From Promethearchaeota archaeon (GTDB taxonomy: Archaea > Asgardarchaeota > Lokiarchaeia > Sigyniarchaeales > SOKP01), in NCBI GenBank assembly GCA_016840085.1, contig JAEOTA010000051.1:32001-96000 (forward strand): 64,000 bases of DNA, given 5' to 3'. The stretch's first letter is position 1. Every line of letters begins with the position of its first letter. A program made the position numbers and the translations under genes. Shown one piece after another: positions 7,833 to 15,865 of the stretch. The notes below the pieces were generated by a model that searched no databases, was not told where the DNA came from, and was given only the letters and a program-made list of their open reading frames with translations.

Positions 7833-9905
7833 TTGTCAATTCAAGATTTTATTGCTCATTTAGATAAAGTTATTATAGATTTTGAAACTGGAAAACCGGA
7901 TAATAAGAGTATAGGAATAATTTATACTCCGCAACCTATTGTAGATTACATTGTTTCAAATATTTTTAAATTATATTTTGAAGAATTTTTTAATTTGCAA
8001 AACTCATCTAAATCAAACTCATTTATGAGTATATTAAAACATAATTTGTGTAAAAATGCTAATTTAAAAACAAAATTTGTTAAAAAACTAAAAACTATTA
8101 AAGTTTTGGATCCTGCTTGTGGATCTGGAAGATTTATGATTTCTGTAGCTGACAAACTGTTTTATTTTTATAAAACGCTAAACACGGGGTTAGATGATTA
8201 TGAGATAAAACAATCTATAATAAAAGATAATTTATATGGTATTGAGATTGAAGAAACTGCTTTTTTTATCACAAAATTACGATTATTATCTTGGCTTTTT
8301 TCTGGTTGTAAAAAACGGATTAATCTTCCTTCTTTTAATACAAAGGATTTAAATCTCGAAGAAATTAGCCAAATTGTTAATAGCCTTGACATAAAATTTA
8401 ATGTATTTAATTTAGATTTTCTTTTGGCGTTTGATTCTGATAAATACGATATAATCATAGGAAATCCACCTTATGTAGAAAATAAGAAAATAAAAAATAC
8501 AGAATTTAAAAAAAAATTAACTAAAAGATTCAAATCAGCTTATAGGTTATTTGACCTCTCAGTTGTCTTTATCGAGAAATCATTAGAGCTATTGAAAGAA
8601 AGAGAAGGTTTTTTATCTATGATAACAACAAATAAATTCTTATCAGCAGATTACGGTATCCACATAAGAAAGATGCTTATATTTGATACTGAGATTAAAG
8701 AAATTATTAATATATCCTCTCTTCCTATCTTTGGAAAAACTGCTGCATATCCAATTATTTTTTCCCTTAAAAAATCAATACCTAAAGTAAATAATACAAT
8801 TAAAATTAAACGGTATGAGGAATTCAATGAAATATTCGAAAATAGCAATATAAAATCACAATTTCTGCCTCAAAAATTAATAAAAAAAATTCCTGCTTTT
8901 GTCTTTCCCATCTTTGGTCAAATTAATTTAATAAATTATTTATACACTAATTTTAAACCTTTAACGGAGGTAATTAGTGATTTGAAAATTCTTTATAGAC
9001 CTTATGGATTTATAAACTGGTCCAAACACCTCAATAACGTTAAAGATAATGTAAATTTTAATAGTGGTCTATTGTTATGTGGAACAGGAAATATTGCAAA
9101 ATATCATATAAAATTTGATAAACTAATTAAAATCGCAAAAAAAATTCTTCCAATTTCTTACTTCAAATATCAAAACGAATTTAAAGATATTTGGAAGGAA
9201 TTAATGGGTGAAAAACTAATTTTCAGAGAAATAGCTAAAGAATTAACATGGATGTATGATCCAGGAATTTACACAAACGTAACTGGATTATATTTTGTAA
9301 GAATTCCCTCATTTAATCAGAATAAATTATTTTGTCTTTTAGCTATAATGAATTCAAGATTAATGGATATCATATTTAAAACCCTATTTAGTTCTCTTCA
9401 TATGGCAGGGGGATATATGAGATTTAATGGAAGTTTTATAAAAAGATTACCTATGCCTCATAAATTTCCTTTAACATTATCACATTGCGGAAAAATTTTA
9501 CAAATACTTTCCCAATTGGATTATGATTTAAATTCTGATTATAACTTTAAAAATCATGAGTTAAAATTAGCAAAAGATAAGTTTCAAATAGAAATAGTGA
9601 ATTTATTAAAGATTTTTAATAATTTAAGTAATTCTTTGGTGAATTTACTATATCTAGATGAGTTATATCTTGATTCTAACAAAGATTTCAATTACTTGAG
9701 AGAATTATTATATTCAAATATTCAGTTAAATAAGATTCAATTTAAATATTTACTACCTCGATATCAAATAAAAAATTATCACACTTTTACGATAGAAGAG
9801 TTAGAGCTTACTCTAGATGAGATTAAGAATTCATTAAATAAGATCTTAGAAAATGAGATTCTATTAAATCAAATTCAAGAAACCCAATATATAGAGTTAA
9901 TATAA
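7833..9905 (+). CDS. N6-adenine DNA methyltransferase (Eco57I/TaqI-like) with C-terminal target recognition domain
   Basis: YTPQPIV, VLDPACGSG and IIGNPPY motifs; TaqI_C-like tail (EKLIFREI, LLAIMNS, IKRLPMP). Confidence 0.88.
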   Translation: MSIQDFIAHLDKVIIDFETGKPDNKSIGIIYTPQPIVDYIVSNIFKLYFEEFFNLQNSSKSNSFMSILKHNLCKNANLKTKFVKKLKTIKVLDPACGSGRFMISVADKLFYFYKTLNTGLDDYEIKQSIIKDNLYGIEIEETAFFITKLRLLSWLFSGCKKRINLPSFNTKDLNLEEISQIVNSLDIKFNVFNLDFLLAFDSDKYDIIIGNPPYVENKKIKNTEFKKKLTKRFKSAYRLFDLSVVFIEKSLELLKEREGFLSMITTNKFLSADYGIHIRKMLIFDTEIKEIINISSLPIFGKTAAYPIIFSLKKSIPKVNNTIKIKRYEEFNEIFENSNIKSQFLPQKLIKKIPAFVFPIFGQINLINYLYTNFKPLTEVISDLKILYRPYGFINWSKHLNNVKDNVNFNSGLLLCGTGNIAKYHIKFDKLIKIAKKILPISYFKYQNEFKDIWKELMGEKLIFREIAKELTWMYDPGIYTNVTGLYFVRIPSFNQNKLFCLLAIMNSRLMDIIFKTLFSSLHMAGGYMRFNGSFIKRLPMPHKFPLTLSHCGKILQILSQLDYDLNSDYNFKNHELKLAKDKFQIEIVNLLKIFNNLSNSLVNLLYLDELYLDSNKDFNYLRELLYSNIQLNKIQFKYLLPRYQIKNYHTFTIEELELTLDEIKNSLNKILENEILLNQIQETQYIELI

Positions 9906-10051: not shown

Positions 10052-10384
10052 GTGAAAAACATGGCAAAAAAAAAAAATAGTACTCCTGCTGAAGAGGAAG
10101 ATTATGAAATTCCAATAGGAAAAGTAGATGAGGATGGAGATGAAATTTTAGATTTAGAAGATTGGAAAGATAACCTAGAAGAAGATATTGATTATGATCT
10201 TAGTAAAGTTAAAGACGATATGCTAGTTGATGAAACTGAGGATGAATCGTTTGGTTATGAAATCGATGAAGCAGAAGCGCTTTTGAGAAAAGTTAAATGT
10301 GCTCCATGTCCTGGCAGCTCAAGTAAGCGAAACTGTAAAGTTAGAGATGATTTTGGGTGTCCTCCCGATAAAGCTAAGAAATAA
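10052..10384 (+). CDS. Small acidic protein with C-terminal four-Cys motif
   Basis: D/E-rich N-terminal part, then CAPC..NC..FGC. Probable start is ATG at 10061, after GGTGA. Confidence 0.7.
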   Translation: MKNMAKKKNSTPAEEEDYEIPIGKVDEDGDEILDLEDWKDNLEEDIDYDLSKVKDDMLVDETEDESFGYEIDEAEALLRKVKCAPCPGSSSKRNCKVRDDFGCPPDKAKK

Positions 10385-10534: not shown

Positions 10535-11548
10535 TTGTTGTGGAAACTTTTGCTATCAAATACTCAAAAACGCATAATATTAGTATTTATTGACATTTTG
10601 TTTAGTTGGTTTATTTGGCAAGTAAATATTTCTTTAGGAAATCCATGCTATTCTACAGCTTTTTTTAGATGTTTTATTTTATCAACAACAACGTTTTTAA
10701 TAGTTTATACACCATTTGAAATTTATTGGTCTTTTCGAGACCTTTGGTTTGATCGTTGGATTAATCTCAGCTCTAAGGAAATTGAAGTTTCTGAAATTAA
10801 AATTGATTTAAAAGATGGATTTTTGGCAGCGAATATTATAAAAAATCGAAATTCAGCAAAAGTTAAATTAAAAAGCTCAATAATAGTAATTTGTCATGGT
10901 TTCTCTGATACAAAAGAAACCCTTCAGTATTATTACTTTCCATTAGTTTACCAAGGATATATTGTGTTAGCCTATGACGCCAGAGGGACAGGAAAGTCTA
11001 AAAAATTAGGGAAAAGAAGTGATTTTTTAAAAAGAATCGAGGATTTCAAGAAAGTTATTGAGTGGATAAATTTAGAAAAAGAACTCTCTGAGTTGAAAAT
11101 TTACAGTATTGGTTTTAGTATTGGAGCAATAAGCGTATTATGCGGAGGTTTTTTAAACAATAGAATTAAGAAAATAATTGCTATCTCATCAATGTCTTAT
11201 TATAAACAAAACATTCCAAAACATAATCCCGTAGTTATGTTAAGCTATTTACTTAAAAGTGTGAAACTATTCCCAAATAAGGAAGAGAACGAGAAATTAT
11301 CACCATATTTAGTAATCAATAGTGCTAAAAAAGATCTTAGTAAAGAAGAATGGAAAAAATTATCAAGAAGAGTTATGTTGGTTCACTGTAAAAATGATAA
11401 AGTTATAAAGTTCAAAAATTTTGAAGAAAATAGAATACTTCTAGAAACACCTGAAAGAAATCTAATTATCTTGAAAAAAGGGGGCCATTCTCAAAAGAAA
11501 AACGAATCTTCATTAGTAGGGGCTACACTTAGCTTCTTGTATTCATAA
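10535..11548 (+). CDS. Alpha/beta hydrolase with N-terminal membrane segments
   Basis: CHGF, YDARGTG, GFSIG nucleophile elbow, NDKVI and GGHS motifs. Confidence 0.88.
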   Translation: MLWKLLLSNTQKRIILVFIDILFSWFIWQVNISLGNPCYSTAFFRCFILSTTTFLIVYTPFEIYWSFRDLWFDRWINLSSKEIEVSEIKIDLKDGFLAANIIKNRNSAKVKLKSSIIVICHGFSDTKETLQYYYFPLVYQGYIVLAYDARGTGKSKKLGKRSDFLKRIEDFKKVIEWINLEKELSELKIYSIGFSIGAISVLCGGFLNNRIKKIIAISSMSYYKQNIPKHNPVVMLSYLLKSVKLFPNKEENEKLSPYLVINSAKKDLSKEEWKKLSRRVMLVHCKNDKVIKFKNFEENRILLETPERNLIILKKGGHSQKKNESSLVGATLSFLYS

Positions 11549-11863: not shown

Positions 11864-13030
11864 TTAATAAAGTTTGATCATTTCTTTTATCGATTCAATA
11901 ACTAATATAATACTTGCATTAACTTTTTTAAGTTTCTCCTTAAAATAATTTGTTTCTTTTTTAGATTTCTCAATTTCTTCGAAAATGTTAAAAAAGTGTT
12001 TTTCAGACTCTAATTCCATTGCATATACATTTTTTCGTTTTGTAGCATCATTCATATTTACTAAACATCCATGGTCATGAAAGTGATGATTAAATGCTGG
12101 AAAATAGGTTTCCCATAATAATTCTTTTAACTTTTCATAAACGTTTTGAGCAAGCTCCTTACAGTATTTCTTACTCCTATTGCTATAACAAAAATAGAAT
12201 GATAATTTTTTATAATTACTAGCTATATACTCTTTCAATCTTTCATATACTATATCTAATTGTTTAGTTGTTAAATTTATATGAGTGTGATTAGTATTAG
12301 GTGTACATTTATAAAATAAAGGTTTCCTAAAATGGGGTATATTATAGAGTTTGATAATATTATATACTATTGCCTCCTTAAGCCAGTGTGAAAATTTGTA
12401 AGTAATTGAATCTTTATTTAAATTTTCAATTAATTCTGTTGAAAATCTTTTAAGAAGAGAAGTTTCATGAAAATCAAGTATATATATCGATATATCCTCA
12501 TTTTCCCAGAATTTTTCCAATAAATTCTTCATAATTCTCGCATGTTCTGGAATGTTAAATTGATTTAAATCATTTTCTCCTTTATTATATTCCGGGATAA
12601 AAGTTCTCCTCCAATATCGATTTAGATTTGTACCATTTTCTAAAAAATATCCTGATTTATTTTCTTTTTTAGGATATAAAAATCCATAGGGATTCATTAA
12701 TGGAGCAAAAATTAGAATCTGAAAATTTAATAAAATTTCATTTATGGAAATCTTCGATGTTTTAATCATATTAAGAAATTCTAAAAACCCAAATAATCCA
12801 TTATATTCATTATGCTGTGCACCCACAAAAACCTTTACAAATTTAACTTTATTTGGATCCAATTCTTTTGAGATAATAATAATTGGAACTTTTCCTTCAG
12901 AGGTTTCAAATTCTAAATAATTTAAATCATCTAATTTACTAAATTCCTTAAATTTAGTTAAAATTTTTTCATATAATTTGTTTCTATTCGGCAAATCTAA
13001 TAATTCTTTTAAAGTCTCTAAGCTCACCAA
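11864..13030 (-). CDS. M14-family zinc carboxypeptidase / succinylglutamate desuccinylase-like hydrolase
   Basis: GAQHNE (HxxE-like, one residue short), NPYG, NGTNLNRYW, LDFHE and a candidate catalytic Glu in AMELE. Confidence 0.75.
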   Translation of the reverse strand: MVSLETLKELLDLPNRNKLYEKILTKFKEFSKLDDLNYLEFETSEGKVPIIIISKELDPNKVKFVKVFVGAQHNEYNGLFGFLEFLNMIKTSKISINEILLNFQILIFAPLMNPYGFLYPKKENKSGYFLENGTNLNRYWRRTFIPEYNKGENDLNQFNIPEHARIMKNLLEKFWENEDISIYILDFHETSLLKRFSTELIENLNKDSITYKFSHWLKEAIVYNIIKLYNIPHFRKPLFYKCTPNTNHTHINLTTKQLDIVYERLKEYIASNYKKLSFYFCYSNRSKKYCKELAQNVYEKLKELLWETYFPAFNHHFHDHGCLVNMNDATKRKNVYAMELESEKHFFNIFEEIEKSKKETNYFKEKLKKVNASIILVIESIKEMIKLY

Positions 13031-13033
13031 GGT

Positions 13034-14473
13034 TTAATCAACAACTGTATCCCAATCAGAGAAATTTATAATTATTTCATAGTTTCTTACCATACTCGCA
13101 AATAATACACAGCCAATACAAAACAAATTTACAAAATCATCTTTAGTCAAATTTAATAATTTACAATTTTTTTCTGAGAATCCAATTCCTCTCTCGACTT
13201 CGATTTGCCCATTGTAACCAGATAAATTTACTACAAATTCCTGTTTATCTAAACCGGTACTAAAGCTTCCACGTGCAATTCTTGCTAATCCCCCTATTGG
13301 GATTATCATATTATTCCGTTGAGCTAAATATATCCTTAAATCGAATGTATGTTTTTTTTCCCGCCAATCAATCAAAGAAAAATTTGCCTTTTCTTGAATA
13401 GTATAGGGAAAAGGATTACGATTTTTCATAAACTTTGCAAAAAATTCCCTTTTGCTTTCTTCAATAATGCGTTTAATGTTTGCGGAATCTTCGTCTATAG
13501 ATACTGGAAATATTCCTGCTCCCCCTGAACCCCCACTTGGTTTAATAACAAAAGGTTTTTTATACTTTTTTAATAAATATTGTAGTTTATTAATTAAATC
13601 TACTTCACTAAATGCTTTAGTAAATAGAAGGTATCTAAGATTGTATTTTTCTAAAATATCTTTACTGAAATAACTAGCTAAATATGTTAGAGATTTATCA
13701 TCAGTGATTCTAAATATAGGATTAATAATAATAGTGTTAATTTGATGGTAATTTTCTTTGATTTGCATTATAAATTTCTCATCATTTAAACGTCTTGTAA
13801 TTCCATCACCTATTAAAACACTAACTTCCTCACTCTTATATTTAACCCAATTATTTGAAAATGAGAGTGTATAAGAAAGCTGTTTATAATCTGCAATTAA
13901 AAAGACAATATCCGCTTTAAAATCTTTATCAAAGTTTTCTGTATTAAAAATTTTAACAGAATAAAATTTCGATTTTAAAGCTTTTCTAAAATATTCAATC
14001 ATAATAACTTTTTCGTGAATTAACGCATCATTAACAGGCACCCCAACTAATACAAAAACCTTATTATCGTCATGTTTATTTAATTTTATTGCTTGATTAA
14101 TGGCTTCAAGATATCCATTAAATAATAATTCTTGCTGTTTTTTTGAGATTATTGAAAGTCCCCTATGCGATCCTCCATTTGTTTCTAAGAGAAAAAACCT
14201 TTTACCCTCTGGTTCATCAGACACCATAAAATCGATACTACCGGCATAGAAAGAGTTAATATTGATAAGAAAATTATCATTATCTTTTTCCATTTTCTCT
14301 AACGCTCTCGTTCTAATTAAATCAATAAAAAGGTTTTCTTGTGAAGCTCTTAATTCAGCAAATGATACTAAATTAAGTCCTAATGAGTGGCCTAATTGTA
14401 TTAATTCTAGATCTGAATCTGATATACTAGTAGACATTAGCTTAAGAAATTTATTTAGCAAACTTTCTTCCAT
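13034..14473 (-). CDS. Circularly permuted ATP-grasp amidoligase
   Basis: The D...ExN motif (SIDF..FLLETNGG) is near the N-terminus, ahead of DDK, VIKPSGGSGGAG, IQEK, FDLRIY, GGLARIA and VVNLS. Confidence 0.8.
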   Translation of the reverse strand: MEESLLNKFLKLMSTSISDSDLELIQLGHSLGLNLVSFAELRASQENLFIDLIRTRALEKMEKDNDNFLININSFYAGSIDFMVSDEPEGKRFFLLETNGGSHRGLSIISKKQQELLFNGYLEAINQAIKLNKHDDNKVFVLVGVPVNDALIHEKVIMIEYFRKALKSKFYSVKIFNTENFDKDFKADIVFLIADYKQLSYTLSFSNNWVKYKSEEVSVLIGDGITRRLNDEKFIMQIKENYHQINTIIINPIFRITDDKSLTYLASYFSKDILEKYNLRYLLFTKAFSEVDLINKLQYLLKKYKKPFVIKPSGGSGGAGIFPVSIDEDSANIKRIIEESKREFFAKFMKNRNPFPYTIQEKANFSLIDWREKKHTFDLRIYLAQRNNMIIPIGGLARIARGSFSTGLDKQEFVVNLSGYNGQIEVERGIGFSEKNCKLLNLTKDDFVNLFCIGCVLFASMVRNYEIIINFSDWDTVVD

Positions 14474-14632
14474 TAAAAATCAATTAAAGACAATACAGTT
14501 ATCTTATATTAATTTTAATACAATCTTTTTTTATATTTTTTTACTCATTATTAAAAAAAGTCTCGTTCTTTATGCATTAAAAAAATAGAGAAGAATCAAT
14601 AATCTAATCTTTTCTAGTCTTTAAAGATTTAA

Positions 14633-15865
14633 TCATAAATATAAATATCCTTGATGATTCCCTTTTATAGATAATCTCAGGCTCCCAAGTAAAATTTTTT
14701 TTACTTGAAGTTGTTGTTTATAAGTTAAGTTTGAGTAAAGTAATATATAGTTCTTCTCAACATTTATTGTAAATAGGAGCCCTATTTCTGTCAATTCAGA
14801 ATTCTCTGTGAGTAAGCCTATTATAACATAGTGATAAGGAAGATTAATGAGATCATTAATGTCAATTTTCTTTTCAATAATAGTATCATTATCTTTATCG
14901 TAATCCATTTTTATAAATTCGATATCATCTAATGGAATTGAAATTTTTCTAAACTCTTCAAATTTTTTGGAAAATTGACTTTGTCTCAAAAATCTTCTCT
15001 CTTCTTTATTTTTATCATAAAAATATTTGTTTATTTCCTTTATTAAATAGATTTTTCTATCTTTTCTTAAGGTTGATGCTGTTTTTTGTATATCTTTTAG
15101 TTCTTCAATTGTATCATCATGAAATATGATTATGATATCTGGATCTACTGTTTTTATGAAAAAGTTTTTGTAGAGTATACCTGCTTCAGTTTTGATCCAA
15201 CCATCTGTATCGATTAAGATAAAATCAGTATTTTTATTATTTTCAATATATCTGTCAATTAATCTCTTACAAGAAAGAGAAACAATAAATTTATAATTTC
15301 CCTTTGGAAATGTGTTTCCTATAAAAACTGTTTCCTCAGAACTGACATTTTCACTTGATATAATATAATCCTTAATTGTACCAATGTTTAAAGTCGTAGG
15401 AAGATATATTATTTGCTGTCCAAGATCAGAATCGAGATAACCCCCTTTTAATCCCTCTTTAATAAAACTATTAGCTAAATACTTAATAAGAGTTGTTTTT
15501 CCACTACTAATTCCTAATACCATTATTTTTAATGGTGAACCAGTTTTCTGTTTTAATTTTTTTATAATTTCGTCTTTAATTTCAACCCATTGAGGAAAAA
15601 TAGAATTTTCTTCGATTAAATTAAGATTTTCTTCAAGGTTAGTGTAAATTTCTAATTTTGAATTCTGTTGCGCATATAAAGGAAAGATTTGGGCACTTTG
15701 TATTATTAAAACATTTTTTTCTTCAATACCAAGTTCTCCTTGACTACCGGTTCCTTTGATAGGAAGAAAAATCTTATTAAATACATCTATTTTTCCTTCT
15801 AATACTGTTATTCTTGCAGGGCCTTTTACCAATAAAGTATTTCCTTTATCAATATTTTTAATCAT
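14633..15865 (-). CDS. Clp1/Grc3-family polynucleotide 5'-kinase
   Basis: TLLVKGPA N-terminal domain, GISSGKTT P-loop, LDSDLGQ, LIDTDGW and ERRFLR lid motifs. Confidence 0.88.
   Translation of the reverse strand: MIKNIDKGNTLLVKGPARITVLEGKIDVFNKIFLPIKGTGSQGELGIEEKNVLIIQSAQIFPLYAQQNSKLEIYTNLEENLNLIEENSIFPQWVEIKDEIIKKLKQKTGSPLKIMVLGISSGKTTLIKYLANSFIKEGLKGGYLDSDLGQQIIYLPTTLNIGTIKDYIISSENVSSEETVFIGNTFPKGNYKFIVSLSCKRLIDRYIENNKNTDFILIDTDGWIKTEAGILYKNFFIKTVDPDIIIIFHDDTIEELKDIQKTASTLRKDRKIYLIKEINKYFYDKNKEERRFLRQSQFSKKFEEFRKISIPLDDIEFIKMDYDKDNDTIIEKKIDINDLINLPYHYVIIGLLTENSELTEIGLLFTINVEKNYILLYSNLTYKQQLQVKKILLGSLRLSIKGNHQGYLYL

Follow-up and report, generated by a model that had tools for sequence, protein, structure and literature searches.

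What reaction is carried out by two adjacent genes of a Lokiarchaeia genome, one encoding a ligase with ATP-grasp motifs and the other a protein with the motifs of M14 zinc carboxypeptidases? The pair lies in the window, which is the 64,000-nucleotide stretch of contig JAEOTA010000051.1 analysed here and to which coordinates refer unless another locus is named. The G+C content of the window is about 29%. The ligase gene (P0001; 13034–14473, minus strand) starts with ATG and encodes 479 amino acids. The gene of the partner protein (P0002; 11864–13030, minus strand) encodes 388 amino acids and starts with TTG, with a GTG one codon later. The junction between the stop codon of the ligase and the start codon of the partner (TAA-acc-TTG; 13031–13033, minus strand) agrees with the original prediction of two co-oriented genes 3 nt apart. 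The two genes overlap by 8–28 nt in several other genera, and the short gap or overlap suggests one transcript and coupled translation. We lean towards the reading that the two genes form a bicistronic module that makes and breaks an amide bond of a small molecule or short peptide and in which the hydrolase is optional.

The ligase carries the motifs SIDFMV (residues 79–84), FLLETNGG (94–101), IKPSGGSGGAG (310–320), IQEK (359–362), FDLRIY (377–382), GGLARIA (394–400) and VVNLS (414–418), and no ExN follows VVNLS. The first two motifs form a relocated Mg-binding strand pair (residues 79–101, with D81, E97 and N99; 14171–14239, minus strand), which was assigned from conservation, the structural model and fold alignment. 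The ATP-binding half (residues 310–418; 13220–13546, minus strand) comprises K311, the Gly-rich loop 314–320, the IQEK hinge, FDLRIY with R380, and VVNLS. It was assigned from the motifs, conservation and sub-threshold Pfam ATP-grasp matches over residues 286–403. The phmmer search of 1.84 billion representative proteins gave 68 matches at E ≤ 0.001. All members of the ligase family that were aligned agree in length and architecture, and the matches include no classical ATP-grasp family. The family alignment (A3) contained 38 members with 18–74% identity to the query, in which Q45, D81, E97, N99, G100, G105, E154, D223, N251, K260, Y264, K311, P312, G318, G320, P356, Y357 and R380 were nearly invariant. 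The D...ExN block (79–101) is thus conserved as strongly as the ATP-binding Lys and the FDxR Arg. The ATP/Mg active site appears complete. All motifs quoted for the two proteins in the original prediction were located, and they are not chance occurrences, since the catalytic residues are conserved across 38 ligase and 24 partner sequences.

The best Pfam match of the ligase was ATPgrasp_YheCD (PF14398), which reached 22.2 of the required 26.8 bits and was limited to residues 293–403 (profile positions 37–152 of 255). The ligase is not a member of YheC/D, because the score lies under the gathering threshold and the ligase is permuted, whereas the order of YheC/D is classical. The scores for CP_ATPgrasp_1/2, including CP_ATPgrasp_2 (PF14403), were also under the Pfam thresholds. 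The ligase does not belong to the TTL/TTLL profile (PF03133) and does not share the non-permuted architecture of that family. The NCBIfam search gave noise only. No significant match to a PDB sequence was obtained for the ligase or the partner by phmmer and hmmsearch, whether the query was a single protein or a profile (A1, A2). The Pfam models of eukaryotic glutathione synthetase (GS) gave no match at E ≤ 1 for the ligase or at E ≤ 0.1 for 38 relatives. The listed homologues of the ligase and of the partner are assigned to Promethearchaeota or Lokiarchaeota, which supports the Asgard origin of the window, and are called "hypothetical protein". The ligase therefore lies outside the characterised families covered by the Pfam, NCBIfam and PDB sequence searches, membership of which would have spoken against the original prediction, and the family is unannotated, with no Pfam or NCBIfam model.

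The AlphaFold2 model of the ligase, based on the A3 alignment, had a pLDDT of 91.5 and a pTM of 0.91, with strands at residues 77–87 and 90–99. The top Foldseek ranks were eukaryotic glutathione synthetases (8fbz, E = 6e-13). They were followed by 3k1t, plant homoglutathione synthetase, nematode GS-like effectors, Cp1B, YjfC/YgiC, GspS, 3n6x and trypanothione synthetase, and the first classical ATP-grasp in the ranking was biotin carboxylase (~1e-4). In the independent VIA search, the best matches were again permuted ATP-grasps, and the permuted structures aligned from ligase residue ~16–58. The classical ATP-grasps (ArgX/LysX, Ddl, RimK, GshB 1gsa, synapsin, CPSase, TTLL11, TTLL6 and TTL) aligned only to model residues 137–463 with their own residues 1 to ~230–280. 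Their C-terminal ~50 residues were unaligned, and their C-terminal Mg-binding strands were left without a counterpart in the ligase. The circular permutation is real because only the permuted relatives cover the N-terminal Mg strands, as would be expected if strands 77–99 replace the classical C-terminal ones. On the model, both the ATP-grasp superfamily and the permuted clade of the ligase were confirmed by the Foldseek/VIA fold comparison, in line with the permutation claimed from the motif order.

The closest structural relatives are the eukaryotic GS and homoglutathione synthetases (2hgs, 8fbz, 1m0w and 3kal). Like the ligase, they are permuted and place the Mg-binding E-x-N before the ATP-binding Lys, and their Foldseek alignments to the ligase are full-length (E 6e-13 to 1e-9). 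Their reaction, a carboxylate–amine ligation between a small peptide and an amino acid, also resembles the chemistry proposed for the ligase. However, they share 11–13% identity with it, give no Pfam match and are not paired with a hydrolase. The likeness is a fold similarity only, without membership of the GS profiles. The structural-genomics entry 3k1t ("putative gamma-glutamylcysteine synthetase" of Methylobacillus flagellatus) is 13% identical to the ligase with no sequence-level match; to our knowledge, its own function has not been shown and no M14 partner has been described for it. The usual partners of CP_ATPgrasp_1/2 proteins (e.g., 3n6x) are an alpha-E domain, a transglutaminase and an NTN hydrolase, and these were not among the annotated neighbours of the Loki pair.

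Within the permuted clade, GspS is a precedent for pairing the synthesis and the hydrolysis of one amide bond. Its hydrolase is a fused CHAP amidase and not a separate M14 enzyme. The Loki pair resembles the synthetase and amidase halves of GspS, but the Loki hydrolase is optional. GspS, trypanothione synthetase and E. coli YgiC/YjfC use a polyamine as the amine, and the N-R pair of the Loki partner suggests, by contrast, a product with a free carboxylate. YgiC/YjfC are peptide–spermidine ligases, and homoglutathione synthetase joins gamma-Glu-Cys and beta-alanine. Cp1B is one of the standalone enzymes that form amide bonds in the biosynthesis of E-64 (PMC12568646).

The partner protein contains QHNE (residues 72–75), NPYG (113–116), NLNRYW (135–140), LDFHE (185–189) and MELE (338–341). 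Pfam gave no match for it, and PF00246 found no match in the whole genome. Among 24 homologues of the partner, nine match Peptidase_M14 (best E = 6.1e-6) and five match AstE_AspA_cat. The AlphaFold2 model (pLDDT 91.0) resembles M14 carboxypeptidases (Foldseek E ~1e-6, probability 1.00), and by this model the partner has the M14 alpha/beta fold. Structural scores lower than those of M14 proper were obtained with CphZ (16.2), DoeB (15.0), AstE/AspA (12.6–14.8) and MpaA (13.9). The AstE/AspA architecture, a catalytic domain with a C-terminal beta "hybrid" domain, was not found. Compared with AstE/AspA (succinylglutamate desuccinylase, aspartoacylase and DoeB) and MpaA/CphZ, the partner is without the C-terminal beta domain and structurally closer to M14 proper. 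Its identity to the M14 metallocarboxypeptidases (CPA, CPB, CPD, CPT and CCP5) is 10–16%, and it has ~75 extra residues between the second His and the Glu strand.

H73, E75, P110, N113, N137, R138, H188, E339 and E341 were invariant in the 24 partner sequences. In the model, these residues sit in the secondary-structure elements and in the order expected for M14. H188 of LDFHE (12467–12469, minus strand), the candidate third metal ligand, lies at the end of the strand formed by residues 181–190, and we take its position to be that of His196 of carboxypeptidase A. E339-L340-E341 of MELE (12008–12016, minus strand) lies in the strand of residues 335–343 and holds the candidate general-base Glu, which, from the motif order, is probably equivalent to Glu270 of carboxypeptidase A. 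The metal motif Q72-H73-N74-E75 (12806–12817, minus strand) is non-canonical. The Zn ligands of M14 enzymes follow the pattern H-x-x-E...H, whereas all 24 partner sequences have HxE, with H188 present. Compared with GQHGNEWNG of AstE-like partners, the motif shows a one-residue deletion (AQH-NEYNG), which is common to the partner orthologue in a second Asgard family. In the ungapped hhalign alignment, the template Glu falls on Y76. The M14 assignment of the original prediction was therefore right for the fold, but the QHNE on which it drew is HxE and not the canonical HxxE.

A total of 400 Asgard genomes were searched for the two genes. The ligase was found in 120/134 genomes of the window's family, 2/14 genomes of the sister family and one more genome of the same class. 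The matches elsewhere in Asgard were weak, partial and typical of other ATP-grasps. The M14-like gene was found in 85/134 and 2/14 genomes of the two families. In every genome with both genes (85 genomes), the hydrolase gene lies directly downstream of the ligase on the same strand, so that the pair, whose conservation across Asgard had been proposed as a check, is linked in 85/85 cases. The hydrolase is the less regular member. In genus g12, the ligase was present in 35/42 genomes and the hydrolase in only 8. The window's own genus includes eight ligase-only genomes, two of which are 100% complete. Two fetched loci showed a clean deletion of the hydrolase with intact flanking genes. In one Asgard genome (G128; L020:5189-6643), the ligase has no M14-like neighbour, and a gene for an M20-family peptidase converges on it. 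This gene could be a non-orthologous replacement of the hydrolase, although the arrangement occurs in one genome only.

The profile of relatives with 30–40% identity detected 16 loci in Hadarchaeota and Chloroflexota (Anaerolineae). In 11 of the 16 loci, the ligase adjoins a protein of ~320 amino acids of the AstE/AspA family (Pfam E 1e-18 to 1e-21) with the canonical HGNE, and the gene order and orientation of this pair vary among the loci. The two kinds of partner, M14-like and AstE/AspA-like, are connected by the orthologue of the M14-like protein in Asgard family f3, which matches both hydrolase profiles (A2, 2e-32; A7, 2e-7). The pairing of the ligase with an M14-superfamily hydrolase is conserved across two domains, and because it recurs there in varying gene orders, it cannot be explained by regional synteny. 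A more distant subfamily (20–26% identity) was found on metagenome contigs, in which an MFS exporter follows the ligase in nine loci and tandem copies occur. The exporter-flanked arrangement is typical of small-molecule synthesis and export. Tandem copies of the ligase were seen in L005, L007, L013 and L014 (Anaerolineae) and in L091 and L095/L096 (metagenome). The first copy in L095/L096 lies in an open frame of 837 amino acids, with ~360 extra N-terminal residues that have no Pfam match.

The variant metal motif and the losses raise the question of whether the M14-like protein is a hydrolase at all. It may be a pseudoenzyme or binding partner, or it may be unrelated to the ligase, with an inherited gene order. 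The metal motif is one residue short, and the gene is lost or decayed in roughly a third of the ligase-bearing genomes. It also evolves faster than the ligase, with 56–89% identity among the listed homologues against 67–94% for the ligase. However, no intact copy of the gene deviates at H73, E75, N137, R138, H188, E339 or E341, and the start/stop overlaps are maintained. In two other phyla, the ligase has an M14-superfamily hydrolase with the canonical HxxE beside it, and the order of the genes varies. We therefore regard an inactive or unrelated partner as very doubtful.

Reversible tagging of proteins is a further reading of the same pair. In the manner of TTL/TTLL, RimK and LysX, the ligase would attach amino acids, singly or in series, to the C-terminus or an acidic side chain of a protein, and the M14 protein would remove them, as CCPs do. 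The protein-modifying ATP-grasps that were matched are all non-permuted and align to the common core only, whereas the structures matched over the full length are ligases whose known or annotated substrates are small molecules and small peptides. No protein with an acidic tail at its C-terminus emerged as a candidate substrate, and the acidic neighbour ends in a basic tail. In addition, the presumed eraser has been lost repeatedly, and sister subfamilies of the ligase pair with exporters. We judge such tagging to be distinctly improbable. The original prediction had left a protein and a small metabolite side by side as substrates of a reversible ligation; the ligase/hydrolase pair and its recurrence uphold the general idea, but the protein tag is weakened by the small-molecule fold relatives, the exporters and the hydrolase loss. 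It had rightly refrained from claiming orthology to TTLL/CCP. TTLLs are non-permuted, match the ligase no better than Ddl, RimK or synapsin do, and show no orthology to it. TTLL/CCP-like protein tagging is thus unlikely, and the pair does not currently support a story of the origin of the tubulin code.

For the favoured make-and-break module, the ligase would activate a carboxylate of the substrate as an acyl-phosphate at the expense of ATP. The acyl group would then pass to an amine, for which the alpha-amino group of an amino acid is the most likely candidate. An amino-acid acceptor is favoured because the partner keeps the N-R pair used by M14 enzymes to hold a free C-terminal carboxylate. 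N137-R138 of NLNRYW and E339/E341, the candidate counterparts of this pair and of the general base, are invariant and occur in the expected order and secondary-structure elements. The divergent M14-fold metallohydrolase would either hydrolyse the bond made by the ligase or shorten the product, and so serve recycling or control. A small substrate is favoured because the nearest folds are ligases of small molecules and short peptides, and because a sister subfamily is paired with exporters. Folds, permutation, catalytic-residue conservation, gene linkage and distribution are observed, and we infer the chemistry, the bond shared by the two enzymes and the small size of the substrate.

Several points weigh against this reading. 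About 36 ligase-bearing genomes are without the hydrolase, which might act on something else. In three genomes the hydrolase gene has decayed, and short remnants with stop codons follow right after the ligase. Taken together, the ligase-only genomes, the remnants and the clean deletions indicate that the role of the ligase does not need the M14-like hydrolase. The metal motif of the partner is HxE and not HxxE, so its Zn site is putative. No biosynthetic neighbours that point to a substrate were found. M14 proper, which is the best structural match, mostly acts on the C-termini of peptides and proteins, and a protein substrate is possible. Neighbours with RtcB-like motifs, HD domains and Clp1 similarity recur and hint at nucleotide or RNA chemistry, which a small-amide module leaves unused. 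Finally, a fold relationship does not fix function.

The RtcB-like neighbour belongs to a wider context that the original prediction had missed, namely a recurrent third gene. A member of this unnamed family of proteins of ~400 amino acids (A8) is encoded no more than a few kb from the ligase in 11/16 Hadarchaeota/Chloroflexota loci. Its conserved motifs are KPNxCGM, GKSNHF, HxSGxELRG, NHQG, PHGGGY and a C-terminal P....LK, which presumably recall the metal, guanylyl-His and C-terminal Lys motifs of RtcB in the same order. The hhalign comparison with canonical Asgard RtcBs matched GKsNHF to GsGNHF and mHxSG to HtGSRG, with a probability of 7% and an E value of 0.005. The protein atlas links A8 to clusters in which 13% of the members carry PF01139. 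A8 itself has no Pfam match and no PDB sequence match, and PF01139 does not detect it. The identification of A8 as RtcB was therefore kept as a lead only. Examples of A8 are L018:1465-2712 (from the window's own genome), L020:8098-9306 and L021:1013-2230. In L009, L010 and L017 (Anaerolineae), two to three tandem paralogues lie just upstream of A8 and the ligase; those of L017 encode U32-family peptidases.

A8 and its companions suggest that the pair may be part of a larger module together with A8 and an HD phosphohydrolase, here beside a Clp1-type kinase. The substrate of such a module would be a phosphorylated or nucleotide-linked molecule or an RNA end, to which the ligase would attach an amino acid or amine. 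Besides the Hadarchaeota/Chloroflexota loci, A8 adjoins the ligase in Asgard G128, where the order is metallophosphoesterase–HD–A8–ligase. In Asgard G139, A8 lies on the same strand ~1.8 kb upstream of the ligase, in the order A8, arginine decarboxylase, deoxyhypusine synthase, small ORF, ligase and M14-like gene. An HD gene often precedes A8, and HD genes accompany it in five loci (L006, L020, L062, L065 and L067). The window's genome also encodes A8 (E = 2.6e-133), although on another contig (C68:16170-17375) next to metG. The RtcB-like motif order, the hhalign motif matches and the atlas clusters are in favour of RNA-end chemistry as well. In genus g12, A8 is also missing in five of the seven ligase-less genomes, where ~1.3 would be expected by chance; this co-loss may be a single loss shared by kin. 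On the other side, A8 is far commoner than the ligase (212 against 137 of the 400 Asgard genomes), occurs alongside canonical RtcB and is unlinked to the ligase in the window's own family, and its relation to RtcB is unproven. Such a larger module therefore seems unlikely to us.

The Clp1 neighbour adds little to this reading. The Clp1-type P-loop polynucleotide-kinase-like gene (14633–15865, minus strand; Pfam CLP1_P, E = 5e-27) is the upstream neighbour of the ligase here and in most sampled genomes of the window's family. However, synteny within the family extends over the whole region of 15–20 kb, and in G276 four genes are inserted between the Clp1-type gene and the ligase. A functional link between the two is weakened by both observations, and the adjacency was down-weighted as functional evidence. 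The two genes are separated by an AT-rich 159-nt spacer (14474–14632, minus strand) with a TATA-like TTAATATAA ~35 nt before the ATG of the ligase. This element, a predicted promoter, is consistent with a separate bicistronic unit.

A8 is followed by a pyruvoyl-dependent arginine decarboxylase (PvlArgDC) and deoxyhypusine synthase (DHS) in three genomes of family f3 (L021:1013-3842, L064 and L065). This trio may reflect a link of A8 to polyamine/hypusine metabolism or synteny only. A polyamine link of the ligase was rejected, since the A8-PvlArgDC-DHS trio is synteny of family f3 and is also present where the ligase is absent. We also speculate, with little expectation that it is correct, that ligase, hydrolase, the enzyme with RtcB-like motifs and the HD phosphohydrolase form a four-enzyme module. 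Such a module would build or edit a molecule with both phosphodiester and amino-acyl-amide bonds, for example an amino-acid-decorated RNA end or a nucleotide conjugate; the alternative within the same speculation is reversible tagging of protein C-termini as a prokaryotic forerunner of tubulin-code logic.

The original prediction also named a glutamylated cofactor as a substrate. The ligase would then extend the tail of a C1 or redox cofactor of the methanopterin or F420 type with glutamyl residues, and the hydrolase would trim it. CofF and MptN are ATP-grasp glutamate ligases, a distant subfamily of the ligase lies beside MCH and a RimK-like gene in 2–3 metagenome loci, and Lokiarchaeia and a Hadarchaeota genome encode MCH. 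However, MCH is missing in 3/5 module-bearing genomes tested, including two closed Chloroflexota chromosomes. CofF and MptN are of the classical RimK type and non-permuted, and none of the genes that flank the pair in the window is a cofactor gene. The methanopterin-tail idea was therefore rejected as a general explanation, and we consider a cofactor tail of either type highly improbable.

Enzymes of both kinds, and the logic of pairing a ligase with a hydrolase, are known; the family, the archaeal permuted topology, the HxE variant and the module are new variations on them. In the literature library that was searched, no paper joins a permuted ATP-grasp with Asgard archaea. Lokiarchaeia are relatives of eukaryotes, and the ligase has its unusual permuted topology in common with eukaryotic glutathione synthetase. 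The ligase probably makes a metabolite or modification important to Lokiarchaeia, because it is near-universal and strongly conserved in one major family. Sister genomes with ligase and hydrolase, with the ligase only or with neither form a natural experiment, so that the product could be discovered by comparison.

Three other genes near the pair in the window were conserved in position. The plus-strand gene at 10052–10384 encodes a conserved protein of 110 amino acids that is Lys-rich at the N-terminus, has a long acidic region and carries a Cys4 motif at the C-terminus (KCxPCxG...C...GCP). Pfam gave no match for this protein, and its gene is still in the block of the ligase pair in the genus that diverges most among those examined. 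The ORF at 7833–9905 (plus strand) encodes 690 amino acids that include IIGNPPY, a typical motif of N6-adenine DNA methyltransferases, and its position is kept in several genera. An alpha/beta-hydrolase (Hydrolase_4, S33-type) with a hydrophobic N-terminus is encoded at 10535–11548 (plus strand), convergent with the M14-like gene. Its position is kept in all genera examined, including genomes without the M14-like gene.

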